This document shows positions 2,677 to 58,697 of a stretch of DNA of 64,000 nt, in pieces. The first letter of the stretch is position 1; every line of letters starts with the position of its first letter. The position numbers and the translations under genes were made by a program. The notes under the pieces are model-generated. The model saw only the letters and a program-made list of their open reading frames with translations. It was not told the DNA's origin and did no database searches. The stretch covers positions 1,609,214-1,673,213 of the forward strand of contig OZ251459.1 in NCBI GenBank assembly GCA_965242525.1. The letters are read 5' to 3'. The DNA comes from an uncultured Candidatus Binatia bacterium. Lineage in GTDB: Bacteria; Desulfobacterota; Binatia; UBA9968; JAJDTQ01.

Positions 2677-3681
2677 TCAGCGGTCCGAAGGGGGCCGCGC
2701 GCTGTCCGGGTCGGCGCTCGACCGGACCAGGGCCTCGACGCAAGAAGCGGTGTCGAGCATGGCGCACCCGAACCCGACGCTGGGTGGCGCCGGCGGCAGG
2801 GGTCCCTGCCAGTAGCGGTGCTGCGGCCAGCTTCCGTCGGAGCGTTGCCGGCCCAGGATCCGCTCCAGCGTGGCCCACAGCTCTTCGCCCTCCGGCGGGG
2901 CGCCCAGCACGTGCAGCGCGGAAAGGGCGCGGGCGGTGCGGAGGGTGTCGCCGTAGCCGCCGTCCGCGCCGCGGCGGGCGCGGATCCGGTCCGCGAGCCG
3001 GTCGCCCATGTCCCGGAACGCGGGCACGCCCCGCTGCCGGGCGCGGGCCACCGCGTCGTAGAGGTCCATGGCGTCGGGGTAGTAATGGGACGTCCCCTCG
3101 AAGTTCCCCTCGGTGACCAGGCCGGCGAGCCACGCCGCGGCCTGCGCGCCCAACTCGTTCCGGCCCTGTATGGCGAGGTAGCCCACCACGTTGGCGTTCA
3201 CCACGCTGTCCGGGACGTTGCCTTCGCCGGGCGGGGCGAGCCAGGTCCGGAACCTTCCCCTGTCGTCCCGGGCCGCGGACACGAGTCCCAAGTTCTGTCC
3301 GAACAGCACCCAGGGGTGCCACAGGATCGCCAGGGAGCAGACGCTGAGGCTGTCCAGGTCCCGCGGAAGCCGCGGCCAGTAGCGCCACGCGCCCGGATGG
3401 CTCATGGACCGGACGATGAACTCCCCGGACCGGTCCCGGACCGCCCGGGAGCGGGGGTCGTCGCAGACCTCCAGGGTGAGCGCGCCGAGAGCGGCCACGA
3501 AGGGGGGATGCTCCTCGTTGGACGGGCCTTGGAGGTCCAGGCTCGGGTAGCTCCACGAGGTCCATGCCCCGTCGCCGCGGATGGAGGCATGGAGGAAACC
3601 GAGGCCCCGGTCCACCGCGCCGCGCACCGCCTCCCGGAGGTGCGCCGGGACGGCGCCGTCGTTGTAGGATGAATGCTGCAT
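2677..3681 (-). CDS. Prenyltransferase / squalene-hopene-cyclase repeat (alpha/alpha-toroid) protein
   Basis: QW-type repeats RQRSDGSWPQH and RRGADGGYGDT are present, there are no LanC-type Cys/His motifs, and GC3 is high. The start was placed at MQHSSY because the longer ORF (to 3753) runs into the MITE cluster. Confidence 0.5.
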   Translation of the reverse strand: MQHSSYNDGAVPAHLREAVRGAVDRGLGFLHASIRGDGAWTSWSYPSLDLQGPSNEEHPPFVAALGALTLEVCDDPRSRAVRDRSGEFIVRSMSHPGAWRYWPRLPRDLDSLSVCSLAILWHPWVLFGQNLGLVSAARDDRGRFRTWLAPPGEGNVPDSVVNANVVGYLAIQGRNELGAQAAAWLAGLVTEGNFEGTSHYYPDAMDLYDAVARARQRGVPAFRDMGDRLADRIRARRGADGGYGDTLRTARALSALHVLGAPPEGEELWATLERILGRQRSDGSWPQHRYWQGPLPPAPPSVGFGCAMLDTASCVEALVRSSADPDSARPPSDR

Positions 3682-3699
3682 TGCAAGAGTTCCCTCTCC

Positions 3700-4080
3700 C
3701 TGTGGGGGCGCTTCAGGAATTCGTGTGGGTTGCGACACTTCCCATCCCGTCATCCCCGCGAAAGCCCCGTCTCGTCATTCCCGCGAAAGCGGGAATCCAT
3801 CCACTTTCCTCGCTCTTGTTGTAAAAACCTCTCATACAGGGCGCTATGGGGTTTGCTCGCAGGGTCTGGATTCCCGCCCCCGCTTCCGCGAGGACATGCT
3901 TTCGCGGGAATGACGGCGTGGGCGTCTGTGGAGCAATGACGGCGTGCCCCCTGTCGCTCCCCCTTTCCCTCTTGCCTTGCCCACACGAAAGCCGGAAGAG
4001 CCCCCTATGGGAAAGCGCGTCCTTCGACTTCGCTTCGCTCAGGACGAACGGGGTTCGTAGTTCAGGGTTTCCAAATCCGG
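3700..4080. repeat. MITE cluster containing family 2 (TIR CCGTCATTCCCGCGAAAGCGGGAATCCATC) and a partial family 1 copy (GCGTCCTTCGACTTCGCTTCGCTCAGGACGAACGG)
   Basis: Palindromic GTCATTCCCGCGAAAGC / GCTTTCGCGGGAATGAC arms are present, and the same units recur at about 11.2, 24.3, 25.1, 29.2, 42.3 and 45.9 kb. Confidence 0.8.
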
Positions 4081-4084
4081 CTTT

Positions 4085-4111
4085 ATCCAGTATAGTATAA
4101 AGGCATAATTT
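4085..4111 (+). promoter_or_regulatory. AT-rich putative promoter (CCAGTATAGTATAAAGGCATAATTT) upstream of the tandem repeat and HlyD gene
   Basis: This is a conspicuous AT island in a 70% GC background, with TATAGT/TATAAA -10-like hexamers, about 215 bp upstream of the HlyD start. Confidence 0.35.
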
Positions 4112-4238
4112 CGTCAGGCCCGTCAGGCCCGTCAGGCCCGTCAGGCCCGTCAGGCCCGTCAGGCCCGTCAGGCCCGTCAGGCCCGTCAGGCCCGTCAGGC
4201 CCGTCAGGCCCGTCAGGCCCGTCAGGCCCGTCAGGCCC
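4112..4238. repeat. Perfect 9-bp tandem repeat (CGTCAGGCC) x ~14
   Basis: The repeat is read directly from 4112 to about 4238. It translates as a (GPD)n artefact on the minus strand, and lies between the AT-rich element and the HlyD start. Confidence 0.95.
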
Positions 4239-4325
4239 GGTCTTCCGGCCGTGGTGGCGTCCCGCCCGGTCGGAACCCGGGCGCGCGCCTCCGGCGCCGG
4301 CGGGCATCCCGGAGCATTGACGCAC

Positions 4326-5228
4326 GTGTCCCTGTTCTACAACAAACTTTTCCGGGAGGAAGCCGTCGCCCGTCGGGCGAGCGGGGACCCACTGGACGAA
4401 CGGCTCCAGGTCACGGCCCGGCACGAGTGGATGGTGCTGGCGGGGCTCGGCTTGGCGCTCCTGCTGCTGCTCGTCTGGGGGGTCTTCGGAAGCGTGGAGC
4501 GCAGCCTTTCGGTCAAGGCCGTGCTGGTCCAGCCGGGCGAGCGCTACGCGGTGCTGTCACCCGTGTCCGGCAACGTGGTCGAACTCCTGGCCGAGGTCGG
4601 AGACACCCTCCAGGCCGGACAGGGCATCGCCCGGGTCCGTCTCCCGGAAGCCGAGCGCCAAGTCCGGATCACCCGGAGGATCCTGGACGCCGTCCGGGAC
4701 GGGACGGGAGGCGCCGCAACCGCCGAGATCCGGGCGGCGCTGCTCACCGCGGCGCGGGCCGAGGTCGAAGCCGTCGAGTCCCGCGCCGCGGAATCCATCG
4801 TGGCCCGGCGCGAGGGCCGGCTCGTGGCGCATCGCCTGGTCCCGGGCCAGCCGGTGCGCACCGGCGAGACCGTGGCCCAGGTCCGGGGCAGTTCCGATGA
4901 GCCGTGGCAGGCGCTGGCCTTCGTGTCGGCGCGGGACGCCGGGAAACTCGAAGCGGGCATGGAGGCGGAGGTGCGGGTGGCGCTGCCCGGGCGGCCGGGG
5001 ACCAGCCGGTTGGAAGCCCGGGTCCTGGAGGTGTCGCCCCGGACCGTGGCCGCCCCGCAATGGCTTGCGGACCTGGGCCTTGCCGCGCCCGCGCCGGCGC
5101 ACCTGCTGCGGCTGGTCCTGAGCGACCGGCCGCGCCTGCCGCTCGCCGACGGCGCCGGCGGACACGTGCGGATCGTGCTGGGGAACCGGTCCCCTGCGGC
5201 CCTGCTGCTGGCCAACACCGACCTCTGA
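4326..5228 (+). CDS. HlyD-family secretion adaptor of an NHLM/NHLP-type bacteriocin export system
   Basis: GTG start followed by [51 protein letters not shown] (N-terminal TM) and then a coiled-coil/beta-barrel-like region. The gene immediately precedes the C39-ABC gene. Confidence 0.75.
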
Positions 5229-5268
5229 TGCCTGCCGCGGTCTCGAACACCTGGGAGGAAACGCCGGC

Positions 5269-7482
5269 TTGAACGCGACGCCGAAGCGAGGGCGCGCTGC
5301 GCCGGAGCGGCGCCGGGCGCGCACGCCCCTGATGCTGCAACTCACCGAGACCGAGTGCGGGGCGGTGTGCCTCGGCATCGTGCTTGCGCACTTCGGGCGC
5401 TGGGTATCCGTCGAGGAGTTGCGGGAAACCTGCTCGGTGGGCCGGGACGGGTGCTCCGCGGCCGACATCTTCCGCGCGGCGCAGCGGTACGGCCTGGAGG
5501 CCCAGGGATGGCGCAGGCAGCCGAAGCACCTCCGCGGCATGCCGTTGCCCATGATCATCTTCTGGGAGTTCAACCATTTCGTGGTGCTGGAAGGCTTCCG
5601 CGGGGACCGGTTCCTGATCAACGACCCGGGCAGCGGCCACCGGACGGTCAGCGCGGAAGAGTTCGACCGGGCGTTCACGGGCGTGACGCTGACGCTCCGA
5701 CCGAAGCCCGAGTTCCGTCCGGGCGGCGTCCGCCCCGGTCTCCTGCACCGGATCCTGCCGTGGCTGCGCGACGTGAAGGAGCCGCTCGCGTTCGCCATGT
5801 GCTGCGGGCTGCTGCTGACCCTGCCCTCCCTCGCCATGCCGTTCCTGGTGGGCCTGTTCGTGGACTTCGTGCTGTCCGGGCGCGAACCGTCCTGGAGCGC
5901 GGCGCTGACCGGGAGCCTCGTGGGGGCCGCGGCCCTGCTCTACCTCCTGACTTGGCTCCGGGAACGCTGCCTCCGGCTGCTCTCCGTGCGCCTCGCCATC
6001 GACCACGGCGCGCGCTTCATGGAGCGGCTGTTCCGGCTTCCCATGGGGTTCTTCACCCACCGGCTGTCCGGCGACCTGACCTCCCGGATACAGCTCCTCG
6101 ACACGGTCTCGAACGTGGCCGCGCACCACCTGGCCGGCATCTCCATCGAGATCGTCACCAGCATGGCGTTCCTTGGGCTCATGCTGGCGTACGACCCGCT
6201 GCTCTGCGCCGTGGTGGTGGGACTGGGCGCGCTCAGCGCGGTGGCCATGCGCGTCCTGGCCCGGGTCCGGGTGGACGAGAACCGCAGGCTCAGGCGCGAG
6301 CAGGGCATGCTGTACGGCATCGGCATGTTCGGGGCCGGCAAGATCGACGCCTTGCAGGCGTCCGCCGCGGAGGACGACTTCTTCTCCCGCTGGACGGGAT
6401 ACCAGGCGCGGGAACTGGCCGCCCGGCAACGGTTCACCGAGCTCGGCCACCTCAACGCGGCCCTGCCCCTGCTGTTCCTGATCGCGGGCAACGCCGCGGT
6501 GCTGGGCATCGGCGGCTGGCGGGTGATGGCGGGCGACCTGACGGTGGGCATGCTGACGGCCTTCTACATGGCGGCGGTGAACTTCCTGCAGCCCATAGGA
6601 CGGTTCATCCAGTTCGCCGACATGTTCCAGATGCTGGAGGCGGACCTGCAGCGCCTCGACGACGTGTTCGACGCGTCCGAGGACCGCACCTTCCATCCGG
6701 CGGCGCCCTCTCCCCAGGGGGAGGAGGGGGAAGTCTCGACGTTGGCCGGGCGGCTGCGTCTGAAAGGCCGGGTCGAGCTGCGCAACGTCACCTTCGGCTA
6801 CCAGAAGAACCGCGAACCCCTGATCGAGGACTTCAACCTGACCATCGAGCCGGGCCAGCGCGTGGCCGTGGTCGGCCCCAGCGGCTCCGGCAAGTCCACG
6901 CTCTCGGCGCTGGTGGCCGGCCTCCAGCAACCGTGGTCCGGGGAGATCCTCATCGACAGGCACCCGCGCAGCGCCATCCCGCGGGAGGTGCTGACCAGTT
7001 CCGTGTCCCTCGTGGACCAGCACATCTTCCTGTTCGGGGGCACCGTGCGCGAGAACCTGACCATGTGGATCCCCGAGGTGCCGGACCAGATCCTGGTGGC
7101 GGCCGCCCAGGACGCGGCCATCCACGCGGAGATCATCTCCCGGCCCCTGGGGTACGACGCGCCGGTGGACGAGGGAGGACGCAACTTCAGCGGCGGCCAG
7201 CGGCAGCGGCTGGAGATCGCCCGGGCCCTGGTCAACAACCCGTCGGTCCTGATCCTGGACGAGGCCACCTGCTCCCTCGACACCATCACCGAGGTGCGCA
7301 TCGACGACGCCCTGCGGCGCCGGGGATGCACCTGCCTCATCGTGGCCCATCGGCTGAGCACCATCCGTGACTGCGACCTGATCGTGGTCCTCGACCAAGG
7401 GCGCGAGGTGCAGCGCGGCGCCCACGAGGAGTTGATGCGGGACACGGACGGACTGTACCGCCAACTCGTGGAGTCGTCTTGA
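5269..7482 (+). CDS. Peptidase C39 domain / permease / ATPase ABC exporter (NHLM bacteriocin system)
   Basis: The N-terminus LQLTETECGAVCLGIVLAHFGRW carries the C39 catalytic Cys, followed by 6 TM segments and an NBD with GPSGSGKST, FSGGQRQRLEIARAL and ILDEAT. An alternative start is MLQL at about 5332. Confidence 0.9.
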   Translation: MNATPKRGRAAPERRRARTPLMLQLTETECGAVCLGIVLAHFGRWVSVEELRETCSVGRDGCSAADIFRAAQRYGLEAQGWRRQPKHLRGMPLPMIIFWEFNHFVVLEGFRGDRFLINDPGSGHRTVSAEEFDRAFTGVTLTLRPKPEFRPGGVRPGLLHRILPWLRDVKEPLAFAMCCGLLLTLPSLAMPFLVGLFVDFVLSGREPSWSAALTGSLVGAAALLYLLTWLRERCLRLLSVRLAIDHGARFMERLFRLPMGFFTHRLSGDLTSRIQLLDTVSNVAAHHLAGISIEIVTSMAFLGLMLAYDPLLCAVVVGLGALSAVAMRVLARVRVDENRRLRREQGMLYGIGMFGAGKIDALQASAAEDDFFSRWTGYQARELAARQRFTELGHLNAALPLLFLIAGNAAVLGIGGWRVMAGDLTVGMLTAFYMAAVNFLQPIGRFIQFADMFQMLEADLQRLDDVFDASEDRTFHPAAPSPQGEEGEVSTLAGRLRLKGRVELRNVTFGYQKNREPLIEDFNLTIEPGQRVAVVGPSGSGKSTLSALVAGLQQPWSGEILIDRHPRSAIPREVLTSSVSLVDQHIFLFGGTVRENLTMWIPEVPDQILVAAAQDAAIHAEIISRPLGYDAPVDEGGRNFSGGQRQRLEIARALVNNPSVLILDEATCSLDTITEVRIDDALRRRGCTCLIVAHRLSTIRDCDLIVVLDQGREVQRGAHEELMRDTDGLYRQLVESS

Positions 7483-10418
7483 ACGGGAAGCACCGAACCG
7501 GGGACGTGCGGAAGCCGGCGCCGGGCAGCCTCCGGGAAATCGCCCTCGCGCACGGCGAGCCGTTCATCGGAGGCGGCAACCGCCCCATCCGCCTGTCCGA
7601 CCCCGAGACCCTGTGGTACGTGGTCAAGGGCACCATGGACGTATTCACCGCCCAACATTCCGCGGACAGGGAGACGTCGGACTTCAAGCATCTCCTGCGC
7701 GCGGGCGCCGGCCGGTGGATCTTCAGCATCGCCAACGAGGAGGACGCCTCCACGTCCCTGTACATCGCCAAGGGGCTCCCCGACACCGAGCTCCGCTGCG
7801 TCCCCCGGACCGCCCTGACCGGACCCGGGACGGCCGGACTCCTGGCCGAACAGGCGGACGCCTGGATTGCCGACCTCGCCGCGGCCATCGCCCGGGAAGT
7901 GGAGCCGCGCCCGCGCCCCCAGCGCTTCCTGACCCCGGGCGAGGACGTCGAGGCCGCGGCCGAGAACGTGCTGTCCACCCGCCGCGGCGTGGTCTGGGTC
8001 TCGACCCAGGTGGGGAACGCGGCTTTCCTCGACACCGGCGAGCCTACCGGCAGCGGTCCGGGCTTCATCCCCGTCTCCGCGGGTAGCTGGATACGGCTGT
8101 TCCACCCCTGCCGACTGGCCGTCACCACGTCCGCGGCCCTCGAAGCCGACGGCCTGCTGTTCTCCGCCCTGGCCGAGTTCCATCGACTGGCGCTGTCCGC
8201 GGAGGAAATCAACCGGCGCCTGGTGCTCGTGGACATGGCCAACTTGCAGCGGGCCCACGTCCAGCGCCGGAGCCGGAGCGAAGAGCGCGCCCGGGACAGC
8301 CTGCTCGGCGTGCTGAACGAGCGGCGGTCCCCCGCGGGGGACCGCGGGACCGGCCTGTTGCGCGCCCTGGAGCAGGTGGGCCGCCACGAAGGCATCCGGT
8401 TCCGCACTCCGCCCCGCCGGCGGGGAACGGACGAGGACGCCCCCGACCTGACGGAGATCCAGCGCGTGTCGGGGGTCCGCGCGCGCAGGGTCAAGCTCGC
8501 CGTCGAAGACCATTGGTGGCGCGGCGACAGCGGCGCGATGCTGGCGTTCCGGCGCGAGTCCGGGAACCCGGTGGCGCTGGTCCCGGGCGTGTGGGGCCGT
8601 TACCAGATGATCGACCCGGAGACGGGCCGTTCGGAGCGGGTGGACGAGGGCCTGGCCCGGGACCTCGCTTCCGAGGCGTACTTCTTCTACCGCCCGCTGC
8701 CGCAGGAGGAAACGGTCCGTCCCGGCGCCCTGTTCCGCTTCGCGTTCCGCGGGCTCGGAAAAGACCTGGCGCGCTTCATCCTGGCGGGACTGCTGGTGGG
8801 CCTCATGATGCTGACGCCGCCCATCCTGCTCGGCGCCCTGGTGGACCGCGTGATCCCCAGCGGGTCCGGCTGGCAAGTCCTGGAGCTGTCCCTGTCCCTG
8901 GTCCTGCTGGCGGTCCTCACCGCGCTCCTGCATCTCCTCCAGGGAACCGCCCTGATGCGGCTGGAGGCCGCAGCCGCGGCCCGGGTGGGCGCGGCGCTCT
9001 GGGACCGGCTGCTCGGCCTGCCGCAGCGGTTCTTTCGTCGCTTCTCCTCCGGCGACCTGACCATGCGCACCATGGCCTTCCAGGGACTGCGCGACCAGGT
9101 CTCGGGGGTGGTCGGCAACGCCCTCCTGTCGGTGGTCTTCCTCCTGCCCACCTTCCTGCTGCTGTTCGTCTATGACACCGGGATCGGCTGGCTCGGCCTG
9201 GGGCTGGGACTGTCCTCCCTGGGGGTGACCGCGGCCATCGGCGTCCTCCAGCTACCCCACCAACGGCGCCTGCTCGCCATCTCGAGACGGCTTGCGGGCA
9301 GGCTGGTGCAACTGCTGAACGGCGTCAGCAAGCTGCGGTCCACCGGCTCCGAAGGCATCGGGTTCGCCTTGTGGGCGCAGGACTACCGGGAACAGAAGCA
9401 GACCGAGATGCGGCTCGGCAGGCTGAACGAGCACCTGATCGCCTTCCTGGCGGCCGCGCCCCTGCTGGCCGCGGCCGCGGTGTTCGCCGCGGCCATGCAC
9501 GACGGCCGCGCGGTCCTTCCGGTCGGGGACTTCCTCACCATCTACGCAGCGTTCATGGTGTTCTATTCCGCGGTGGCCAGGCTCGGCGCTTCGTTCTCCG
9601 CGGTGGCCGCGGTCATGCCCGCGTACGAGCAGGTGACCCCGATCCTGGAGTCGAAGCCGGAGACGGGCGCCAAGGGCGAGCCGCCGCCGGAGCTCAGCGG
9701 CGAACTCCACGTGGACCACGTGAACTTCCGCTACACGGAGGACGGTCCCCTGGTCCTGCAGGACGTCTCCATCCACGCACGGGCCGGCGAGTTCGTGGCC
9801 ATCGTGGGGGAATCCGGCGCGGGCAAGAGCACCCTGTTCCGGCTCGCCCTCGGACTCGAGGCGCCGCTGTCGGGGGCCGTTTACTACGACGGGCGCGACC
9901 TCGCGCGACTCAACAAGCGGGCGGTGCGCAGCAGGATCAGCATGGTGGTGCAGGACGTGTCGCTGCACCCCGGCACCGTGCTGGAGAACATCGTCGGAGT
10001 GTCCGGGAACCTCACCGAGGACGACGCCTGGCGGGCCGCCCGCCAGGCCAGCGTGGACGAAGACATCGCCGCCATGCCCATGCAGATGCACACCCCGACC
10101 GGAGACAAGTCCGCGACTTTCTCGGGCGGGCAGATCCAGCGGATCATGCTGGCCGCGGCGCTGGTCCGGGACCCGAGCGTCCTGTTCCTCGACGAGGCCA
10201 CCAACTGGCTCGACAACAAGAGCCAGGCGCAAGTGATGCACAACGTGGCCGAGCTTGCCGTCACCCGGTTCGTGACGGCCCACCGCCTGTCCACCATCCG
10301 CATGGCCAACCGCATCTACGTGCTGCAGGACGGCCGGGTGGTCCAGACCGGAACCTTCGACGAGCTGTTCGAGATCGACGGCCCCTTCCGCAACCTGGTG
10401 CGGCGGCAAATGGCCTGA
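7479..10418 (+). CDS. Second large ABC transporter of the NHLM tripartite system, with an N-terminal non-transporter domain
   Basis: The protein is 979 aa, and the start overlaps the upstream stop (ATGA). The N-terminal ~400 aa are not TMD-like, followed by a TMD (LLVGLMMLTPPILLGALV) and an NBD with GESGAGKST, FSGGQIQRIML and LFLDEAT. Confidence 0.85.
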   Translation: MNGKHRTGDVRKPAPGSLREIALAHGEPFIGGGNRPIRLSDPETLWYVVKGTMDVFTAQHSADRETSDFKHLLRAGAGRWIFSIANEEDASTSLYIAKGLPDTELRCVPRTALTGPGTAGLLAEQADAWIADLAAAIAREVEPRPRPQRFLTPGEDVEAAAENVLSTRRGVVWVSTQVGNAAFLDTGEPTGSGPGFIPVSAGSWIRLFHPCRLAVTTSAALEADGLLFSALAEFHRLALSAEEINRRLVLVDMANLQRAHVQRRSRSEERARDSLLGVLNERRSPAGDRGTGLLRALEQVGRHEGIRFRTPPRRRGTDEDAPDLTEIQRVSGVRARRVKLAVEDHWWRGDSGAMLAFRRESGNPVALVPGVWGRYQMIDPETGRSERVDEGLARDLASEAYFFYRPLPQEETVRPGALFRFAFRGLGKDLARFILAGLLVGLMMLTPPILLGALVDRVIPSGSGWQVLELSLSLVLLAVLTALLHLLQGTALMRLEAAAAARVGAALWDRLLGLPQRFFRRFSSGDLTMRTMAFQGLRDQVSGVVGNALLSVVFLLPTFLLLFVYDTGIGWLGLGLGLSSLGVTAAIGVLQLPHQRRLLAISRRLAGRLVQLLNGVSKLRSTGSEGIGFALWAQDYREQKQTEMRLGRLNEHLIAFLAAAPLLAAAAVFAAAMHDGRAVLPVGDFLTIYAAFMVFYSAVARLGASFSAVAAVMPAYEQVTPILESKPETGAKGEPPPELSGELHVDHVNFRYTEDGPLVLQDVSIHARAGEFVAIVGESGAGKSTLFRLALGLEAPLSGAVYYDGRDLARLNKRAVRSRISMVVQDVSLHPGTVLENIVGVSGNLTEDDAWRAARQASVDEDIAAMPMQMHTPTGDKSATFSGGQIQRIMLAAALVRDPSVLFLDEATNWLDNKSQAQVMHNVAELAVTRFVTAHRLSTIRMANRIYVLQDGRVVQTGTFDELFEIDGPFRNLVRRQMA

Positions 10419-10436
10419 CCGTCGTTCGGGCAGGCC

Positions 10437-10486
10437 GTCGTTCCCGCAGGCGCCCGCCTCCGTCGTTCCCGCAAGCACGCGCCCGC
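10437..10486. repeat. Three degenerate direct repeats CCGTCGTTC(G/C)CG(G/C)CA(G/A)G (MITE-TIR remnants)
   Basis: Read directly; the repeats resemble the family-2 TIR CCGTCATTCCCGC and lie between the convergent ABC gene and precursor A. Confidence 0.6.
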
Positions 10487-10499
10487 GGAAGCGCCGGGA

Positions 10500-10787
10500 T
10501 TACCAATCGTCGACGATGCTCCGCCCGCTCGGGTTTGGCTGCCATCCGTACACGCCGCCAGCGACCGCCTGCAGGTCGCCGTCGCCCAGCCGGCTGTCGG
10601 GGGGCAGGACCAGATGCGCAGCCTCGCCGCTCTCTTCGTGGACCTCGATGGACAGGGACGCCGGAATGGTGACGCCCAATTCCTGCTCCACCGCCCCCTT
10701 CGGGTCGCTGAGAAGCCGGGCGCGGAACTCCGCGTCCTCCATCGCCTTGCCCACGATCTTCGCCTGCATTTCCTTCGCCGTTTCCAT
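10500..10787 (-). CDS. NHLP (nitrile hydratase leader peptide) family RiPP precursor A
   Basis: Full sequence METAKEMQAKIVGKAMEDAEFRARLLSDPKGAVEQELGVTIPASLSIEVHEESGEAAHLVLPPDSRLGDGDLQAVAGG|VYGWQPNPSGRSIVDDW. It carries a classic NHLP leader, a double-Gly C39 cleavage site, a 17-aa core and a GGAGG SD. Confidence 0.9.
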   Translation of the reverse strand: METAKEMQAKIVGKAMEDAEFRARLLSDPKGAVEQELGVTIPASLSIEVHEESGEAAHLVLPPDSRLGDGDLQAVAGGVYGWQPNPSGRSIVDDW

Positions 10788-10823
10788 GGCTCGTCCCTCC
10801 TCGACAGACTGATAACTACGTGC

Positions 10824-10853
10824 AATTTACGATACCGCTTCATCCAATGTCAA
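10824..10853 (-). promoter_or_regulatory. Sigma70-like promoter for precursor A (TTGACA-N18-TAAATT on minus strand)
   Basis: The reverse complement reads TTGACATTGGATGAAGCGGTATCGTAAATT; a homologous block lies upstream of precursor D. Confidence 0.45.
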
Positions 10854-10984
10854 GGCCATATGCACGAAAACCAGTGTTATCAGGGATTTTCGTGGAACCC
10901 GGCCTTCCGTTCATCCACCTGCCCGATTCCATCGCCATCCGCTCCAAGCTCGACCGCCGAACCACCGGGCGTCCGCCTGGCCGG

Positions 10985-11090
10985 AGTCGCCGCCATGCCC
11001 ATGCAGATGCCCACCGCGACCGGAGGCAAGTCCGCGACTTTCTCGGGCGGGCAGGTCCAGCGGATCATGCTGCCGCAGCGCTGGTCCGGG
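10985..11090 (+). pseudogene. Duplicated ~105-bp fragment of the ABC gene signature region (AAMPMQMPTATGGKSATFSGGQVQRIML)
   Basis: The fragment is about 90% identical to 10070-10175 of the 7479-10418 gene, is out of context, and ends in a MITE-TIR-like CCGTCATTCC. Confidence 0.8.
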
Positions 11091-11149
11091 GCCCCGTCAT
11101 TCCTGCAAGCGTGCCCTCGTCCGCAGGCACACACATCCGGAAGGTCTGA

Positions 11150-11625
11150 ACAATGTCATACCTCCCTTGGGAATGCGCGTCCTTCGACTTCGCTACGCTA
11201 CGCTCAGGACGAACGGAATGGTTGTTCAGGGTTTCCTTGAAAACCTCTGAACAATCGAAACATCCGGGATGGATTCCCGATTCCCTCACCCTGACGCCCC
11301 TGTCCCCGTTCGTCCTGAGCGTAGCGAAGCGAAAACCTCCGTTCGTCCTGAGCGTAGCGTAGCGAAGTCGAAGGACGCGCTCATGCCCCCTGTCTGTCCC
11401 GATTGTTCAGAGGTTCCCTCGGTCATTCCCGCGAAAGCATGTCCTCGCGGAAGCGGGGGCGGGAATCTCGTCGTACAAGCCTCGATGGATGGATTCCCGC
11501 TTTCGCGGGAATGACGGAGGTGCGTGCCCGCGAACGGGGTGCGTGCCCGCGAACGGGGTGCGTGCCTGCAGGAATGACGGAGGTGGCCGCCGCGGGAACG
11601 ACGGGGTGTGCTTTTGGGCGTTTCG
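11150..11625. repeat. MITE cluster (families 1 and 2)
   Basis: Contains GCGTCCTTCGACTTCGCTACGCTACGCTCAGGACGAACGG, GAACAATCGAAACATCCGGGATGGATTCCC, GTCATTCCCGCGAAAGCATGTCCTCGCGGAAGCGGGGGCGGGAATC and a GATGGATTCCCGCTTTCGCGGGAATGACGG arm. Confidence 0.85.
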
Positions 11626-11627
11626 GG

Positions 11628-12749
11628 CTAGTCCCGGGCGAGGGAACAGATCAGGCCGGCGTATGCCTTGGCGGCGACCCCGGCGTCCGTGACCGTGAGC
11701 TTGACGTGGTTGACCCCCTTGTAAACGAGGAACACGCCCCGACGGTCGTACATCCTGTCGAGCGCGCACCACTGGAGCAGCCCCTGCGCCTTCGCCGCCA
11801 GGCACCAGCCGCGGAGCGCCAGCCGCTCCACCACCGGCCGCCAGGCGCTCCGCCCCGTGGTCAGCCAACTGTCCATGGCGTCGTCGCCCCACGACCCCGC
11901 ATGGTACAGTTCCAGGCCGATCCTGGGCAGCAGCCCCGAGTCGGCCACGTCCACCGACAGCCGGAAGCGGGGCAACACGTCCCCGAGGTCGGCCAGCAAC
12001 TCCGTGGCAGGGCGAACCGCAGCGCTCCGGCCCAACCGCTCCAGCACCCCGGCAACCTCGTCGCGCCCGATCTCCTGAACCACCAGCCGCACCGCCCGCG
12101 GCGTCCGGCTCGGCAACGCTCCGACATGGGCGACCCTGGCGTCCGGCGGCAGCGCCGCCAGCGCCCGCGCCACCCACCGCAGCGCCTCGTCCTCATCGGT
12201 CCAGCCCACCGCGCCGGCCAGCGCCGCGATCGGCAAGGGCTGCGGACGGTCATGGGGCCCGGATTCCTCCGTGCGCCGTATCTTCAAGAAGACCCCCGGA
12301 TCCGGGCGCGGGTCGGCCGGCGCCTCGGCCAGGTCGTATTCGAGCATGGTTCCGGCGATGCAAGCGTGCAACTCGGAGTCGGCCTGCCCGATCCGGGCGA
12401 GGTACCGGGACAGCGCCGCCGCCGCCGAGCCCGGACGGGCGGCTTCGCCCCTGCGGATGAAGTGCCGCGCGAGCGGGCTCCCCGACCTCACCACCACGAA
12501 CAGGTCCGCCGCCGGCGTCTCCTCGCCGAGCCGGAACTCGCAACCGAGGAACGCCGACGACCCGGCGTCCGGCAGCTCCGCGGCGCAGGCCGTCAACCGG
12601 TCCCATCCGAGGCCGTCGAGCAAGGAACGCGGTATCAGCGGGCGGAGCCCCGCGAGCACCGCCTCCGGCGCGCGGCGCGCATCGTGGGTCGATGCAGCAA
12701 ACGCGGGCTCGGCAGCCTCAACCAAGGGAAACGGGCTCGACGCCACCAT
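11628..12749 (-). CDS. Hypothetical protein (373 aa) nested between NHLP precursors; candidate RiPP maturation/immunity protein
   Basis: The ORF is long with strong GC3 bias, starts 37 bp downstream of precursor B on the same strand with a GGAGG SD, and has no recognisable motifs. The competing frames are Gly/Arg-rich. Confidence 0.5.
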   Translation of the reverse strand: MVASSPFPLVEAAEPAFAASTHDARRAPEAVLAGLRPLIPRSLLDGLGWDRLTACAAELPDAGSSAFLGCEFRLGEETPAADLFVVVRSGSPLARHFIRRGEAARPGSAAAALSRYLARIGQADSELHACIAGTMLEYDLAEAPADPRPDPGVFLKIRRTEESGPHDRPQPLPIAALAGAVGWTDEDEALRWVARALAALPPDARVAHVGALPSRTPRAVRLVVQEIGRDEVAGVLERLGRSAAVRPATELLADLGDVLPRFRLSVDVADSGLLPRIGLELYHAGSWGDDAMDSWLTTGRSAWRPVVERLALRGWCLAAKAQGLLQWCALDRMYDRRGVFLVYKGVNHVKLTVTDAGVAAKAYAGLICSLARD

Positions 12750-12785
12750 CGCGCCTCCGCGGGAGCGCTGGGAACCCCGGCGGGG

Positions 12786-13067
12786 TCACCAGTCCAGAAC
12801 GCCCTTCCCCTGCTTGAAGTCCTCCCAGCTATATCCTCCCGCAACCGCTTGCAGGTCGCCTTCGTTCAGCTTGCTGTCGGGGGGCAGGACCAGATGCACA
12901 ACCTCGGCGCTCTGTTCGTGGACCTCGATGGACAGGGACGCCGGAATGGTGACACCCAACTCCTGCCCGATGGCTCCCTTCGGATCGCCGAGCAGCCGGG
13001 CGCGGAACTCCGCGTCCCCGGCCGCCTTGCCCACGATCTTCGCCTCCAATTCCTTTGCCGTTTCCAT
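12786..13067 (-). CDS. NHLP family RiPP precursor B
   Basis: Full sequence METAKELEAKIVGKAAGDAEFRARLLGDPKGAIGQELGVTIPASLSIEVHEQSAEVVHLVLPPDSKLNEGDLQAVAGG|YSWEDFKQGKGVLDW. A GGAAGGAG SD is present, and the ORF-track N-terminal extension was discarded. Confidence 0.85.
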   Translation of the reverse strand: METAKELEAKIVGKAAGDAEFRARLLGDPKGAIGQELGVTIPASLSIEVHEQSAEVVHLVLPPDSKLNEGDLQAVAGGYSWEDFKQGKGVLDW

Positions 13068-13119
13068 TGGTTTGCTCCTTCCTGGAGAGAGTGACGGCCA
13101 AGCGCGACCCACGGCGGGA

Positions 13120-13410
13120 TCACCAGTCAAGCAATCCTCCGCCTTTCGTGGCTTCGTGGTAGTCATCCCAGGTAAGCCCGCCGGCGACCCCCTGCAGGTC
13201 TTTTTCGCTCAGCTTGCTGTCCGGGGGCAGAACGAGATGCGCGGTCGCGGCGCTATCCTGGTGGACTTGGATGGACATGGACGCCGGAATGGGGACGCCC
13301 AACTCCTGCCCGATGGCTCCCTTCGGGTCACCGAGCAGCCGGGAGCGGAACTCCGCGTCCTCGGTCGCCCTGCCCACGATCTTCCCCCGCATTTCCTTCA
13401 CGCTTTCCAT
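13120..13410 (-). CDS. NHLP family RiPP precursor C
   Basis: Full sequence MESVKEMRGKIVGRATEDAEFRSRLLGDPKGAIGQELGVPIPASMSIQVHQDSAATAHLVLPPDSKLSEKDLQGVAGG|LTWDDYHEATKGGGLLDW, with a GGAGGAGG SD. Confidence 0.85.
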   Translation of the reverse strand: MESVKEMRGKIVGRATEDAEFRSRLLGDPKGAIGQELGVPIPASMSIQVHQDSAATAHLVLPPDSKLSEKDLQGVAGGLTWDDYHEATKGGGLLDW

Positions 13411-13510
13411 GTTTCGTTCCTCCTCCATCGAGCGATGGTTGCGCACGCCCCACGTTCACGGGCAACCTGCGATACCGGCTCACCGGATGAAGCGACACGG
13501 TCCGGCGGTA

Positions 13511-13810
13511 CTACCAGTCGGCCACGACATTCCAACTGTCATCCACACGCACACCGTTTTCGTCGTACACCGCGGCGGCGCCGGCGACGGTCTCCATCTC
13601 GCTTTCGCTCAGCCTGCCGTCGGGGGGCAGGACCAGATGCGCAGCCTCGGCGCCCTCTTCGTGGACCTCGATGGACAGGGACGCCGGAATGGTGACGCCC
13701 AATTCCTGCTCCACCGCCCCCTTCGGGTCGCTGAGCAGCCGGGCGCGGAAGTCCGCGTCCTCCATGGCCTTGTCCACGATCCTCGCCTGCATTTCCTTTG
13801 CCGTTTCCAT
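13511..13810 (-). CDS. NHLP family RiPP precursor D (VAGA cleavage-site variant)
   Basis: Full sequence METAKEMQARIVDKAMEDADFRARLLSDPKGAVEQELGVTIPASLSIEVHEEGAEAAHLVLPPDGRLSESEMETVAGA|AAVYDENGVRVDDSWNVVADW. The leader is about 85% identical to precursor A. Confidence 0.85.
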   Translation of the reverse strand: METAKEMQARIVDKAMEDADFRARLLSDPKGAVEQELGVTIPASLSIEVHEEGAEAAHLVLPPDGRLSESEMETVAGAAAVYDENGVRVDDSWNVVADW

Positions 13811-13846
13811 GCCTCGTCCCTCCTCCATAGAGTGCCGAACACGTGC

Positions 13847-13876
13847 AACCTACGATACCGGCTCGCCCAATGTAAA
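13847..13876 (-). promoter_or_regulatory. Promoter-like block upstream of precursor D (TTTACA-N18-TAGGTT), homologous to precursor A promoter
   Basis: The reverse complement reads TTTACATTGGGCGAGCCGGTATCGTAGGTT. A conserved CGAAAATCCCTGATA box lies further upstream in both copies. Confidence 0.4.
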
Positions 13877-13993
13877 GTCCCCATGCATGAAAAATGAGTC
13901 TATCAGGGATTTTCGGGGAACCATGCCTTCCGTTCGTCCGCCCGCCCGATTCGGTCGCGGCCCGTTCCGGGGCGGGCGCCGGACGCTTCGGGT

Positions 13994-15358
13994 TCACCCA
14001 TGCTCCGGCCCGGAGGACGGCGGCGCCGCGCAAGCGACCCCCCGGATGACCAGGAGCTTGAGGAACTCGTCCGCCGACCCTGCCGGAGTTCCCTCGGGGA
14101 CCGTTTCCCGGAAAGCCCCCACGCGCACGGTCCCTCCCCGCAGGAGCGAGGCCAGCAACTCCATGCACCGGCCGTCGAAGGTCCAGCGGTAGCCGTGGGC
14201 CTCCAGCACCGCCTCCCCGTCGGCGTTCCGCTCCAGGGTCGCGTGCCGGGCGCCCCGGAGCCGGACCCCGTAACTCTCCCAGTCCGGAGAGTTCCAGGGG
14301 TCGATGCAGGGGCCAAGGCTCGTCCGGGGGCTCTCGGACCACGTGGAGCGCAGGTGGTCGCGGAACTTCCGTCCGACGTCCCCTTGCAGCTCCCGGAGGA
14401 CCAGCTCCCTGAGCGCCGTGTAGTGGGCGGCGCCGGTCCGGTCCGTGGGGTGGGGGAGGTCCCGGCGGAAGGTCTCGTGGCGAGCGAGCCTGCCGGAGAG
14501 CCACTCCATGAATTCCAGCCCGGTGACCGGGAGGACGCTGCAGGTGAGGTGCAGGCTGCCCGAGCCGCCCTGCCCTCCTTCGTCCTGGGTACGGGCGTCG
14601 TGCCACCACCCCCGCGGGACGTAGAGGACGTCGCCCGACCGGACCACCTCGCTCCACACCGGCTCCCGAGGCGGCTCCACGTTGGGTTCCGAGTCCCGAC
14701 CCAGGGGAAAGCGCCGCGTTTCGCCGTAGAGCCGCCAACGCTTTGCGCCGGCCGCCTGCAGCACGAACACGTCGTGGTCGTCCCAGTGCACGGAAAAGCC
14801 CCGGGTGGCCGTCCAGGAGGCGTAGAGGTTGATCCCGGTGTAGCCGCCCAGGGTCTCCTCGATTGCCTCGGCCACGGGGCGGAGAGGGGGATGGATTTCG
14901 TTGACGCCGTGCATGGCCACGCTGGCGCCCGTACGGAGGAAGGTCGCCAGCCGCGCGTCGTCGATGCAGGTTTCCTCCGGGCCTCCCCTTCTCCCCCTCC
15001 ATCCGTGGCCGAACTGCGGCGTCGTGTAGTAGTTCGGGGCAACCGTCTTGCCGTCCTGCACCAGGTGCATCCGGTTGCGCCACGCGCCCGACGACAGCAG
15101 CCCGTTGAGCGCTTCCCAGGTGCAAAGGGACGCGAAACGCGGACCCTTCGCCCGGAACAGCACCGGCCGTTTGTCCCGGTAGCGGGTGTCCAGGAACTCC
15201 TGGGTGGCGAGGGGCCGGACCAGGCTCTCGAACCCGGACTCCGGTCCGTACGGCGCCGCATCGGCCGCCAGCACCTCCACCGGGCCGGCGCCGGGGGGGA
15301 CGGTCCGTTCGGGGCGCGTTTCCGCGCCGGGGCCTCCCGGCGAGGCGGGGCCGGTCAT
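13994..15358 (-). CDS. Cupin_4 / JmjC-domain Fe(II)/2-oxoglutarate-type oxygenase (RoxA/YcfD-like)
   Basis: HxD motif in VHWDDHDVFVLQAAGAKRWRLY with a distal His in GSLHLTCSV. The start was set at MTGPASPGG, which overlaps the upstream ORF's stop (ATGA), and the Arg/Pro-rich N-terminal extension was rejected. Confidence 0.7.
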   Translation of the reverse strand: MTGPASPGGPGAETRPERTVPPGAGPVEVLAADAAPYGPESGFESLVRPLATQEFLDTRYRDKRPVLFRAKGPRFASLCTWEALNGLLSSGAWRNRMHLVQDGKTVAPNYYTTPQFGHGWRGRRGGPEETCIDDARLATFLRTGASVAMHGVNEIHPPLRPVAEAIEETLGGYTGINLYASWTATRGFSVHWDDHDVFVLQAAGAKRWRLYGETRRFPLGRDSEPNVEPPREPVWSEVVRSGDVLYVPRGWWHDARTQDEGGQGGSGSLHLTCSVLPVTGLEFMEWLSGRLARHETFRRDLPHPTDRTGAAHYTALRELVLRELQGDVGRKFRDHLRSTWSESPRTSLGPCIDPWNSPDWESYGVRLRGARHATLERNADGEAVLEAHGYRWTFDGRCMELLASLLRGGTVRVGAFRETVPEGTPAGSADEFLKLLVIRGVACAAPPSSGPEHG

Positions 15359-15696
15359 GCTTCGCCCTTCTTTCCCGAGGCCTTCGCGGGTTCCCGTTCC
15401 TCCACCGCGGCGTCCGGGGCGGTCGGGTCCGGGACGATCTTGACGCTGATGCGCGGAACGGGCCTGGAGGCGCCCCCGGACAGGACCCGAAGGTAATCCG
15501 CTTCCTGCTCGAAGACCCTGCGGGAGGCGAGGCACACGATGGGCGTCCCGTCCCGCAGCAGACTCCCCATGTCCGCGGCGCCCGGGAGCGGCCGGCGGTC
15601 GATTTCCCGGTCGTCGGCGCCCGGGGGACACGCGGACGCTTCGGGGACGGAGGCGCCGCCTGCGTCCCCCGCGGGCGGGCGTTGGTCCGTGCTCAT
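15355..15696 (-). CDS. Small hypothetical protein translationally coupled to the cupin_4 oxygenase
   Basis: The ORF is 113 aa (or 72 aa from MGSLLRDG), its stop overlaps the JmjC ATG, and it has no known motif. Confidence 0.4.
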   Translation of the reverse strand: MSTDQRPPAGDAGGASVPEASACPPGADDREIDRRPLPGAADMGSLLRDGTPIVCLASRRVFEQEADYLRVLSGGASRPVPRISVKIVPDPTAPDAAVEEREPAKASGKKGEA

Positions 15697-15872
15697 GTGC
15701 GACCTCCCTCTTCGAGGCCGTTGCGGAGTCCCTCGACGCCCATGGAACCCCTCCCGGTTGCGGCGATGCCAACGACCTGACGGGAAGATAGCGGACCTCT
15801 ACCCCAATGTCAAAACAGTGACGCCCAAAAAGTGGATTATCCGGGTTTTCCGTGGGAAGCGGCCGTGCGCTT

Positions 15873-16631
15873 TCAGGAGCGGAGGCGCGCCCGGCTTCCG
15901 CGCGCGCCGTACTTGGCCACGAGGGGGAACAGGTCGTAAACGATCCTGGCCTGGGGGCAGTGGCGCCGCACCTCCGGTTCGTAGGCGCTGTTCATGTCCA
16001 TGGCCACCGCCTCGATGGCCTTGCAGCCGTCGGCGCCCAGGCTCTCGAAGAACGGCCGCACGTCTTCGCGGCTGCGCCCCTTGCCCACCCACAACACGCG
16101 CCGGGTCACCGCATCGGTAATCACCGTGGCCAGCTTCTGCACGGTTTGCAGCGCGAACTCGTCCATCACCAGCCGGGTCACCCCGCGCAAGTCCATGGGC
16201 CCCACCGCGCGCTGCAGGTACCCCCTGTCCAAGTCCCTCACCGCGTCCCACCCCAGCCGGTAGTGCTGCGCCACCTGCTTGATGGTCATCACCGTGCACA
16301 AATGCGCCACGTTGTCGGCCAGCCGTTGCGTCACCCGCGCATAGCGGGCCAGCCAGCTCAACCGTTCCAGCTTGGGACCGCACCGCGGACACGCCAGCCG
16401 CCGACGCCGCAGCACCAGGGTCGTGGGCGCGTCGAAGATGGGCAGGTCGCGCACCCGACGCCGCTCGTACCCGTGGACGGCCGCCACTTCCCGGCCGCAG
16501 CCGACGCAGACCCCGGGCCGTCCCGCCACCGGGTCGAGGTCGATCTCGACCATGCCGCGGTTGCGCCTGGCCGCCACCGCTTCGTAGCCTTCCCAGTCTC
16601 CGAGAACTTCGTCGATTCCGATCTTCGCCAA
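15873..16631 (-). mobile_element. ISL3-family transposase gene, 3'-truncated (pseudogene/remnant)
   Basis: A zf-ISL3 region (CVGCG...RDLPIF...RRRRLACPRCG) is followed by a DDE_Tnp_ISL3 start (LVMDEFAL...AVAMDMNSAYEPEVRRHCPQARIVYDLF). The coding region stops after about 250 aa against an expected ~420, and no TIRs were identified. Confidence 0.75.
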
Positions 16632-19700: not shown

Positions 19701-19883
19701 CAGGGCCTCTTCCACCTCCTGGGCCGCTGCGCCCGGGAAGGGGATGCTGACTTGCACCGAGTTCGGGGGGATCTCCGGAAACGTCTGGCGCTTCACCGCA
19801 GGCGCGAACACGAACCCCACCGCCAGAAAGGCGAGCATCAGCAGGTTGGCGGCCGTGGGATGGCCGGCGAAGAAACGGATCAT
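16719..19883 (-). CDS. RND efflux transporter permease (AcrB/CzcA family)
   Basis: The protein is about 1054 aa from MIRFFAGHPTAANLLMLAFLAVGF, with 12-TM topology, two large periplasmic loops, and the conserved MDDAIVISENIARH region. Confidence 0.9.
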   Translation of the reverse strand: MIRFFAGHPTAANLLMLAFLAVGFVFAPAVKRQTFPEIPPNSVQVSIPFPGAAAQEVEEALCQRVEEAVSSIDDLDETDCEARESLASAVLKMRDGGDLDRFLDDVKTQVAAIDDFPDDVETPLVRLRQPSDLVAAIAVAGPMDPRSLKAYAERMKRGLLGVPGVARVSVEGFSQRQIRIEAPASTLRQFGLGVRDLANAVASQSLKLPAGAVETRDATVLVRFDDERRDSREFEDLVVVASESGAAVRLGDIAVVTDRFEKDEAKDFFNGQRTAFLGVEKGKGDDLLEVFDAITAWVEEERQRAPPGVVLDVTRDVASVVRDRLTMLLRNGVQGLGLVLLVMWLFFGLRYSFWVAAGLPVAFMGTIAAMAMTGYSFDMVTMVGLMIAVGLMMDDAIVISENIARHHAAGRPPLEAAVEGAREVAPGVLASYLTTLAVFGALAFLRGNLGTILAVLPVILILTLSLSLVEAFLILPHHLMGTLRAREGSAARGLRARFDAGLGRFTEACVGRCVDAAVQSRYLACAVIAALFFVAASTLAAGMLKFRVFPTLEGNTMEARLLLPPGTPLARTEAVVGHVVEAVRKVDDELSAGRADGRRLVRNVVVQFNRNPDAGESGAHVATVVVDLIDSEARRVLLDDVVGRWRTEVGDLPDVVSLNFTQDQVGPGGKAISVRLAGGELEKLKAASTEIRQWLGNYRGVFDLTDDLRPGKPEMRLRLREGALALGLDAATVARQLRAAFHGRNAGTMQVGPEDYEVNVRLTGPDRDSLADLTQFTITLPDGGQAPLHAVAVLEPGRGYARIRRIDGRRAVRVEGNLDPQVANASEVVADTQARLLPELAARYPEVTVEFGGSAREGSTLGASLARNFLVGLAAIYLLLSFQFRSYVEPLVVMASIPVGLVGVVAGHLAMGLELSMPSVVGFVSLAGVVVNNAIVLVAFIKLHRRRGESAAQGARRAARQRFRAILLTSLTTVAGVLPLLMETSLQAQVLVPLVASLAFGLAASTFQILFLVPALYAILDDLGLTEKVAAAPPAGDAAPPPAEGGSLPLPSAG

Positions 19884-19890
19884 CGGAGGT

Positions 19891-58554: not shown

Positions 58555-58607
58555 GGTCCGGATTCCGGTCCTGCATGGAACGGGTTGATTACCCGCAGGC
58601 CGCCGCA

Positions 58608-58676: not shown

Positions 58677-58697
58677 GCGTAGAGCAGCACGCTGGTG

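Follow-up and report, generated by a model that had tools for sequence, protein, structure and literature searches.

The 64,000-nucleotide stretch of contig OZ251459.1 analysed here, referred to as the window, stems from an uncultured Candidatus Binatia bacterium and contains a genuine gene cluster for a peptide made on ribosomes and modified after translation (a RiPP). The cluster encodes four precursor peptides with NHLP leaders and an NHLM exporter. In addition, it comprises genes for a 373-aa protein predicted to be a prenyltransferase (PT) of the ABBA fold, for a putative class II terpene cyclase, and for a JmjC oxygenase preceded by a small 113-aa open reading frame (ORF). Judging from its modelled fold, the 373-aa protein is probably the conserved core enzyme of the cluster and a new kind of prenyltransferase acting on tryptophan. 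The G+C content of the window is approximately 70%, which crowds ORF lists with spurious frames, and third-position GC (GC3) was therefore used to pick the real genes.

A preliminary description had placed the cluster at positions 4085 to 15696. It reported four NHLP precursors, a complete NHLM exporter, an oxygenase coupled to a small ORF, and the absence of canonical RiPP maturases, all of which is borne out by the searches reported below. The features lie at or near the positions assigned to them, but the interval omits the cluster gene at 2677–3753. With regard to canonical maturases, the GC3-supported ORFs of the whole window (1–64 kb) gave no match to the radical S-adenosylmethionine, YcaO, LanM/LanC or methyltransferase families of Pfam and NCBIfam. 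Rfam and tRNA scans of the 64 kb gave no match either.

Precursor peptides

The four precursor genes are located on the minus strand. Precursor A (10500–10787; 73.2 bits with TIGR03793) carries the core VYGWQPNPSGRSIVDDW after AVAGG, while precursor B (12786–13067; 72.8 bits), situated directly upstream of the PT gene, carries the core YSWEDFKQGKGVLDW. The cores of precursor C (13120–13410; 65.2 bits) and precursor D (13511–13810; 73.4 bits) are LTWDDYHEATKGGGLLDW and AAVYDENGVRVDDSWNVVADW, respectively, the latter following the leader end TVAGA as the putative cut site. The starts of precursors B, C, and D were trimmed to the conserved Met of ME(T/S)(A/V)KE. All four scores, ranging from 65.2 to 73.4 bits, exceed the TIGR03793 cutoff of 50.9, and each precursor additionally matches the nitrile-hydratase alpha Pfam domain. 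The pairwise identity of the precursors is 63–74%, with near-invariant leaders of about 77 aa and divergent cores of 15–21 aa. The two parts are separated by a GG/GA site, and the junctions (AVAGG, GVAGG, TVAGA) are of the double-glycine type. Every core contains one internal Trp and one C-terminal Trp, ends in Asp-Trp ("DW"), and is free of Cys.

Related loci were collected in a scan using one genome per species, which yielded 61 loci whose context was mapped by six-frame phmmer; the JmjC counts given below refer to 64 loci. Across the family, the cores are hypervariable. Of 182 unique cores, 92% include at least one Trp and 46% have Trp as their last residue, which is most commonly preceded by Asp or Asn. 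Trp accounts for 9.4% of the core residues versus 0.09% of the leader residues, and Cys for 0.8% of the core residues. The B-type core precedes the same PT clade in two other loci (L005 and L017), and a close variant, YSWDDFTSGKGLLDW, is found in L019.

A 68-nt element with 82% identity occurs at 10878–10945 and 13901–13968, about 90–160 nt upstream of precursors A and D, and may be a common promoter or regulatory element. In the region, two sigma-70-like promoter candidates were found versus 0.2 expected, both on the minus strand and both recognised by consensus match. One lies upstream of precursor A (10853–10824), whereas the other (TTGACA-17-TATCTT, 15785–15813) is located about 90 nt upstream of the 113-aa ORF. 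Together with the element shared by precursors A and D, these sites suggest that precursor expression is driven separately.

NHLM exporter

The exporter genes are located on the plus strand. The HlyD-type membrane-fusion adaptor (4251–5228) is of a short form, matching HlyD_3 with E = 9e-12 and TIGR03794 with 86 bits, below the cutoff of 156. The adaptor is short in relatives as well, and L001, L002, and many further loci carry it in this position. The first ATP-binding cassette protein, ABC1 (5269–7482), comprises a C39 peptidase, a permease, and an ATPase and scores 895 bits with TIGR03796 (cutoff 853). The second, ABC2 (7479–10418), is a permease/ATPase, extended at its N-terminus by about 290 aa, and scores 748 bits with TIGR03797 (cutoff 709). 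From its family assignment, ABC1 is presumed to cleave the leader after GG and to export the peptide.

A perfect 9-bp tandem repeat, CGTCAGGCC, present in 14.2 copies (100% matches), is found at 4112–4239 in the intergenic region from which the cyclase gene and the exporter operon diverge. On the minus strand, this repeat translates as (PDG)n within a spurious 113-aa ORF at 4083–4424. It could be a slippage-prone, phase-variable promoter element.

The 373-aa protein, a predicted ABBA prenyltransferase

The gene for the 373-aa protein is located at 11628–12749 on the minus strand. The protein has no Pfam or NCBIfam match even at E <= 10 and no PDB sequence match, and by sequence it belongs to none of the described prenyltransferase families (Trp_DMAT, PTase_Orf2, LynF/TruF/PatF). 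The AlphaFold2 model, built with 52 homologues, has a pLDDT of 86.9 and a pTM of 0.86. It consists of five alpha-alpha-beta-beta repeats that form the ten-stranded antiparallel barrel of the ABBA superfamily. In a Foldseek comparison with the PDB, the best 37 matches were all ABBA-type aromatic prenyltransferases, including EpzP, NphB, DMATS1, CymD, KgpF, PagF, and FgaPT2. Invariant R, K, H, and Y residues (R73, R221, H348/K350, K361/Y363) are situated on the predicted barrel strands in i/i+2 patterns. The model thus yields a high-confidence prediction of an ABBA-fold, DMATS-like prenyltransferase, and the fold together with synteny and core statistics points to Trp in the peptide as its target. 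It could alternatively be a non-catalytic member of the fold, serving as a leader- or peptide-binding scaffold, a chaperone or an immunity protein. This would fit the missing sequence likeness to characterised prenyltransferases and an active-site geometry that is read from the predicted fold, but it is considered very improbable.

The 373-aa protein belongs to a large family. A word-indexed search yielded 180 homologues, and the full profile search 3,423 representative clusters at E <= 1e-3 (clusters at 50% identity), 375 of which were matched at E <= 1e-30. Nearly all members are single-domain proteins of 340–400 aa, and no cluster carries a Pfam domain. The 61 loci derive nearly exclusively from metagenome-assembled genomes (MAGs) of Alpha- and Gammaproteobacteria, Binatia, Spirochaetia, Vicinamibacterales, Dehalococcoidia/SAR202, and Nitrospirales, while the protein matches also include Tectomicrobia and Latescibacteria. 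The bins named APA_bin, SB06xx_bin, COS3_bin, and SAR202 bin87 are presumably sponge-microbiome bins. Family members are 70–80% identical across phyla, including MAGs of Alpha- and Gammaproteobacteria, Binatia, Spirochaetia, Acidobacteriota, Chloroflexota, and Nitrospirota, which indicates horizontal spread.

The PT gene is nearly always found beside NHLP precursors, present in 1 to about 14 tandem copies, and an NHLM exporter. A precursor gene lies within 2.5 kb of 85 of the 91 full-length PT genes, and in 60 cases it is located directly upstream on the same strand. Furthermore, the PT clades co-vary with the core directly upstream. For the clade of the window, the "C-terminal Trp" clade with 26 genes, the last residue of this core is Trp in 19 of the 21 cases that could be called. 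The upstream cores of a sister clade (30 genes) contain an internal "(I)TFWDD[FW]", and those of a Dehalococcoidia clade read "VDVNWDTVNIS". Distant members without JmjC occur in different surroundings. L001 consists of PT and exporter only, in L002 the PT is accompanied by a FAD_binding_4 oxidase as well as a Pyr_redox-like enzyme, and a YcaO/ThcOx cluster adjoins L005.

In the Dehalococcoidia/SAR202 loci L038, L050–L053, L058, and L059, as well as in L002 and L004, a FAD_binding_4/cytokinin-dehydrogenase-like oxidase gene directly follows the PT gene. The loci of the Dehalococcoidia/SAR202 type have VDVNWDTVNIS-type cores with an internal Trp and lack both cyclase and JmjC. In the window, the 840-bp gap between precursor A and the PT gene contains, at 10987–11072, an 86-nt copy (95% identity) of the 3' coding segment of ABC2 (10066–10151). 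Similar ABC2 remnants are located beside the PT genes in L013, L029, and L034, suggesting that precursor–PT cassettes have been shuffled next to the exporter.

A predicted class II terpene cyclase

The gene at 2677–3753 on the minus strand, outside the interval 4085–15696, is divergent from the exporter and encodes orf358, a monodomain class II terpene cyclase-like protein of 358 aa, whose translation may start at Met26. As a single sequence, orf358 retrieved nothing useful from Pfam, NCBIfam or the PDB sequences; its family profile and its predicted structure were informative. The AlphaFold2 model (pLDDT 91) has the (alpha/alpha)6 barrel with QW-type repeats and the homology to squalene-hopene cyclase that characterise class II terpene cyclases. 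The family profile matches squalene-hopene cyclase with E = 1.5e-25, and the family consensus PpDLDDT aligns with the catalytic PDVDDTA of that enzyme. Some homologues carry PF13243. The six-frame phmmer mapping showed about 20 loci, spread over different phyla, in which a homologue of orf358 adjoins the exporter or the PT. By these comparisons, a predicted class II terpene cyclase gene belongs to the cluster.

GC-rich repeats resembling repetitive extragenic palindromes flank the intergenic regions of the cluster at 3741–3990 and approximately 11150–11600. They translate to "IPAKAGIH / FRGNDG / PAFAGMT", and the first of these stretches contains a 25-nt repeat in two copies at 3741–3790.

JmjC oxygenase and the 113-aa module

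The oxygenase of 454 aa is encoded at 13994–15358 on the minus strand and belongs to JmjC_2 (PF08007, formerly Cupin_4), the Fe(II)/2-oxoglutarate type, with a score of 86.1 bits versus a cutoff of 22 (E = 1.9e-24). Its HxD...H triad is intact. Among the homologues, the His and Asp of HWD are at least 90% conserved and the His of PRGWWH is invariant, the sole exception being P0178, which is apparently frameshifted. Translation starts at the ATG at 15358–15356. This codon and the TGA that ends the 113-aa ORF overlap as ATGA; the maximal ORF of 592 aa is over-extended.

The 113-aa ORF (15355–15696, minus strand) has a GGGAGG ribosome-binding site and a GC3 of 0.86. Its conserved part spans about 50 aa (LLRxGTPIVCLA..AF.QEA..L...PVPRISI.IVPD). 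It matched nothing in Pfam or the PDB, gave nothing useful with NCBIfam, and has no detectable relatives outside its own family, and homologues are paired with JmjC in 11 other loci. In L067, a metagenome contig whose 373-aa protein falls into the same 90%-identity cluster, an independent gene call gives the same 113-aa and 454-aa products. The possibility that the 113-aa ORF is an out-of-frame artefact of the 592-aa ORF was ruled out by GC3, the ribosome-binding site, the ATGA coupling, the homologues, and the fusions described in the next section.

Among the 64 loci analysed, 22 encode a JmjC oxygenase, whereas the 373-aa gene is kept together with the precursors over 61 loci. The JmjC oxygenase is thus probably an optional add-on, while the 373-aa protein would be the core enzyme. 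In contrast, the preliminary description had regarded the JmjC oxygenase as the only recognisable tailoring enzyme and built its central idea on maturation by it. Neither is supported: the predicted ABBA fold and the terpene cyclase gene speak against the first, and the distribution of JmjC against the second. An account that makes JmjC the main maturation enzyme, which would hydroxylate the cores or cross-link them oxidatively, with the 373-aa protein as an accessory, can draw on the fact that, among the enzymes of the minus-strand arm, JmjC alone has a Pfam match, and on its intact triad. Moreover, JmjC peptide hydroxylases are part of RiPP pathways (PMC11575548, PMC12707348), and the two Trp residues of each window core are cross-linkable in principle. 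Nevertheless, this account is highly unlikely, as 42 of the 64 related loci keep precursors, 373-aa gene, and exporter but lack JmjC, the 373-aa protein has a confident prenyltransferase fold, and the cluster includes a terpene cyclase, which is fused to the PT in P0410.

Where JmjC is present, it is associated with particular cores. The motif W[DE][DE][FYWI] occurs in the cores of 14 of the 22 JmjC loci versus 2 of the 42 others (Fisher p = 6e-7), the stricter [FIWL]W[DE][DGH] in 11 of 22 versus 0 of 42, and JmjC and cyclase co-occur across loci with p = 0.002; the loci are phylogenetically non-independent, so that the Fisher p-values overstate significance. The relaxed JmjC-linked motif is found in the window in core B (SWEDF) and core C (TWDDY).

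This motif bears on the question of whether the cluster of the window has partly decayed or been rearranged, so that PT, precursors, and exporter work while the JmjC arm is an orphan not acting on the four cores. Several observations would agree with such a state. The 113-aa ORF has a truncated ISL3 transposase as its immediate upstream neighbour, and an ABC2 pseudogene fragment is present at 10987–11072. The usual JmjC neighbours, namely clade-3 PT genes and FWDD cores, are absent from the window, and two precursors separate JmjC and PT in L067 versus three in the window. However, the JmjC gene and the 113-aa ORF are intact, with high GC3, a ribosome-binding site, a promoter-like site, and the conserved triad. 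Furthermore, W-[DE]-D-[FY] in cores B and C resembles the JmjC-linked motif, and in L012, also from Binatia, the pair of orf113 and JmjC is likewise directly followed by a D-type precursor. An orphan JmjC arm is rated as unlikely.

The transposase fragment (15873–16631, minus strand) retains the Zn-ribbon, the helix-turn-helix, and part of the DDE domain, and the same fragment is found in L067. Further upstream, the JmjC arm is bordered by an RND efflux pump (1101 aa) and its membrane-fusion protein (453 aa) at 16719–21252 on the minus strand. L004 and L067 likewise have an RND pump next to JmjC, and it may export a lipidated product or protect the producer against it. More distant parts of the window include a lower-GC stretch at 25597–29037, encoding a 1146-aa DUF1156 protein, and a type I restriction-modification system at 55537–63983 (HsdR-like, 55537–58701; N6_Mtase, 62388–63983). 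Both look like defence-island content unrelated to the cluster.

Gene fusions linking the enzymes

Natural fusions connect the different parts of the cluster. In P0410, the C-terminus of the cyclase is joined directly to a PT domain. This truncated protein is the sole PT–cyclase fusion found; there was none of at least 650 aa among the best 150 profile matches. The orf113 module is located at the C-terminus of the cyclase in P0253, P0304, and P0306, and at the N-terminus of JmjC in P0152, P0153, P0160, P0163, and P0166. From these sequences, the 113-aa ORF corresponds to an N-terminal module of the JmjC enzyme that has been split off. That this module serves in docking or in binding the leader is a matter of speculation. 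In addition, an NHLP leader-like domain precedes the cyclase in P0342 (TIGR03793 E = 4.5e-12) and P0339, and the fused orf113–JmjC in P0166 (TIGR03793 E = 1.5e-7). With such in-cis domains, either the enzymes bring their own "leader" or the proteins are themselves substrates of the exporter.

The fusions also bear on the place of the cyclase-like gene at 2677–3753, which could in principle stand outside the peptide pathway and act on a free isoprenoid lipid. This is regarded as improbable, because homologues are situated beside an NHLM exporter or a PT in about 20 loci of different phyla, and because natural fusions join them to the PT in P0410, to the orf113 module in P0253 and others, and to an NHLP-like leader domain in P0342 and P0339. 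The co-occurrence of cyclase and JmjC argues against it as well.

A different type of fusion was observed in L046 (11094–11828) and L055 (11211–11978). Here, an NHLP leader and a short Trp-containing segment run into a C-terminal domain of about 200 aa starting with CFRPDALV. This domain shows a weak match to Hint_2 (E 0.006–0.009, below the cutoff), and each of the two ORFs directly follows the PT gene.

Proposed biosynthesis

The evidence is best accommodated by a proteusin-type RiPP pathway in which prenylation of Trp is the core modification, followed by terpene cyclisation, hydroxylation by JmjC, and export. The cluster belongs to a large family that has spread horizontally and whose cores are hypervariable and present in multiple copies. 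This account is held with reasonable, though far from complete, confidence. The four precursors, with their leader of about 77 aa, GG/GA site, and core of 15–21 aa, provide the starting material. In the second step, which is based on fold, synteny, and core statistics, the ABBA enzyme would transfer an isoprenyl group from a prenyl diphosphate onto indole, in the clade of the window most likely that of the invariant C-terminal Trp. The class II cyclase, as suggested by its fold, the aligned catalytic motif, and the fusions, would then protonate and cyclise the attached oligoprenyl chain. Cyclisation of an attached chain would demand a prenyl donor of at least C10. In analogy to CzlI and BipG, JmjC and its detached 113-aa module might hydroxylate the peptide, or perhaps the terpene; the W-(D/E)-(D/E)-aromatic motif of cores B and C is the best candidate for the site. 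Finally, ABC1 with its C39 peptidase, ABC2, and HlyD would, according to their families, cleave behind the double glycine, so removing the leader, and export the product. The likely product is an exported peptide which is prenylated on Trp and possibly terpene-cyclised and hydroxylated.

Several points weigh against this proposal. All functional statements are predictions. The prenyltransferase assignment derives from a predicted fold, and the active site was read from the model; the family profile of the 373-aa protein finds no PDB prenyltransferase, and no sequence-level match connects it to any known prenyltransferase. No polyprenyl diphosphate synthase gene that could point to the donor was found among the ORFs of the 64-kb window. 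The cyclase gene is located 7.9 kb from the PT gene, beyond the exporter, and the window cyclase reads D132-L-D134-S135, i.e., DLDS rather than DLDD, although the central D134 is invariant in the family. The relatives of JmjC usually occur with a clade-3 PT and FWDD-type cores, both of which are absent from the window. Together with the truncated ISL3 transposase abutting the operon, this indicates that the JmjC arm may be rearranged. The phylogenetic non-independence of the loci mentioned above belongs to the same side of the balance.

A broader proposal extends to the whole family and is advanced only tentatively. The loci could represent a multi-phylum, apparently sponge-symbiont class of terpenoid peptides, in which hypervariable NHLP arrays ending in Trp are lipidated by a Pfam-less ABBA family (>3,000 clusters), cyclised by a stand-alone MstE-like cyclase, and oxidised by JmjC. 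A new mechanism would recruit the enzymes, with the detachable module (about 50 aa) and, in some genomes, in-cis NHLP leader-like domains taking part.

Comparison with known systems

PalQ from Paenibacillus alvei prenylates the C-terminal Trp of an NHLP precursor (PMC10853753). The PalQ/PalX system resembles the window in its NHLP-type precursor with a conserved C-terminal Trp, and prenylation of such a Trp is the modification predicted here. However, PalQ has an isoprene-synthase fold (trans-isoprenyl-diphosphate-synthase, ComQ-like), whereas the window enzyme is predicted to be an ABBA barrel. The trans-isoprenyl-diphosphate-synthase fold and FARM motif of the PalQ type were not found in the 373-aa protein, nor does the window contain a polyprenyl synthase-like ORF. 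The Pal cluster, in turn, comprises one precursor and a histidine kinase, is quorum-sensing-like, and has no NHLM exporter, cyclase or JmjC.

The enzymes NctPC and ChrPC are described in PMC13290415, citing Hubrich et al. 2024, as fused prenyltransferase–cyclases that geranylgeranylate Trp, with an MstE-like domain cyclising the chain. In common with the predicted window enzymes, they combine a peptide Trp prenyltransferase, in NctPC a barrel of alpha-beta-beta-alpha type, with an MstE-like monodomain class II cyclase (PMC13290415). In the window, the two enzymes are encoded by separate genes 7.9 kb apart, while the cyclase–PT fusion P0410 exists in the family. As far as the description in that source goes, multi-copy NHLP precursors with hypervariable cores and an additional JmjC module set the window apart from these systems.

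The srp clusters (Nguyen et al. 2021) encode sponge proteusins with an LCCCW core, a YcaO cyclodehydratase, and the flavin-dependent Trp brominase SrpI, according to the accounts cited (PMC10858898; bioRxiv 10.1101/2023.06.09.544420). Both systems have NHLP precursors with a C-terminal Trp as the site of enzymatic modification, which is predicted for the window, and, on those accounts, both occur in many phyla and in sponge microbiomes. Moreover, in L005 and L023, a gene of the PT family is located beside a YcaO/ThcOx cluster. Unlike the srp clusters as described there, the window has Cys-free cores and, instead of YcaO and halogenase, a prenyltransferase, a cyclase, and JmjC. Identity with an srp cluster was rejected, given that the cores lack Cys and no YcaO or halogenase family was matched among the window ORFs.

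The oxygenase has precedents of its own, JmjC oxygenases being already known as RiPP tailoring enzymes. They are prior art for what the preliminary description took to be an undescribed RiPP class, an NHLP family with a JmjC-type hydroxylase as its only recognisable tailoring enzyme. CzlI is a JmjC peptide hydroxylase converting Phe to Tyr in curacozole (PMC11575548), and BipG is a JmjC ornithine hydroxylase of biphenomycin (PMC12707348). As inferred here, they share with the window enzyme the role of JmjC-type Fe(II)/2-oxoglutarate oxygenases that act as accessory tailoring enzymes on ribosomal precursors, but they belong to other RiPP classes with other leaders and have neither a detachable 50-aa N-terminal module nor an NHLP-like domain. 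Furthermore, Loureiro et al. 2022 mentioned four gene cluster families with NHLP and cupin-4 in sponge microbiomes in a one-sentence bioinformatic note (PMC9426513). Combining NHLP precursors with a cupin-4 enzyme in sponge symbionts, these families are probably the same kind of cluster as the one in the window. In contrast to the present analysis, PMC9426513 does not recognise a prenyltransferase or terpene cyclase, and it includes no core analysis or experiments.

A leader-dependent ABBA prenyltransferase, MppC, is known from a Moorena lanthipeptide (PMC12715784). In the literature searched, no link of proteusins to an ABBA prenyltransferase or a terpene cyclase was found. If the predictions are true, a whole prenyltransferase family of about 3,400 clusters (50% identity), for which neither Pfam nor NCBIfam offers a model, is hidden from annotation, and tools of the antiSMASH type would score such loci as proteusin clusters without an obvious maturase, as the preliminary description had done. 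Leader-guided lipidation of C-terminal or internal Trp on hypervariable cores would be a sought-after tool, for which PalQ, MppC, and SrpI are under development. With a stand-alone cyclase that works on prenyl chains bound to peptides, the recently discovered terpene-RiPP chemistry of NctPC and ChrPC would reach a far bigger and more varied range of natural substrates, and the identity of 70–80% across phyla would suggest strong selection for the products in one habitat.

Taken together, PalQ, NctPC/ChrPC, and the srp clusters are the closest precedents of the cluster. Its chemistry is of known kinds and would be borne by an unannotated enzyme family, making it a lead for genome mining rather than a categorically new system.

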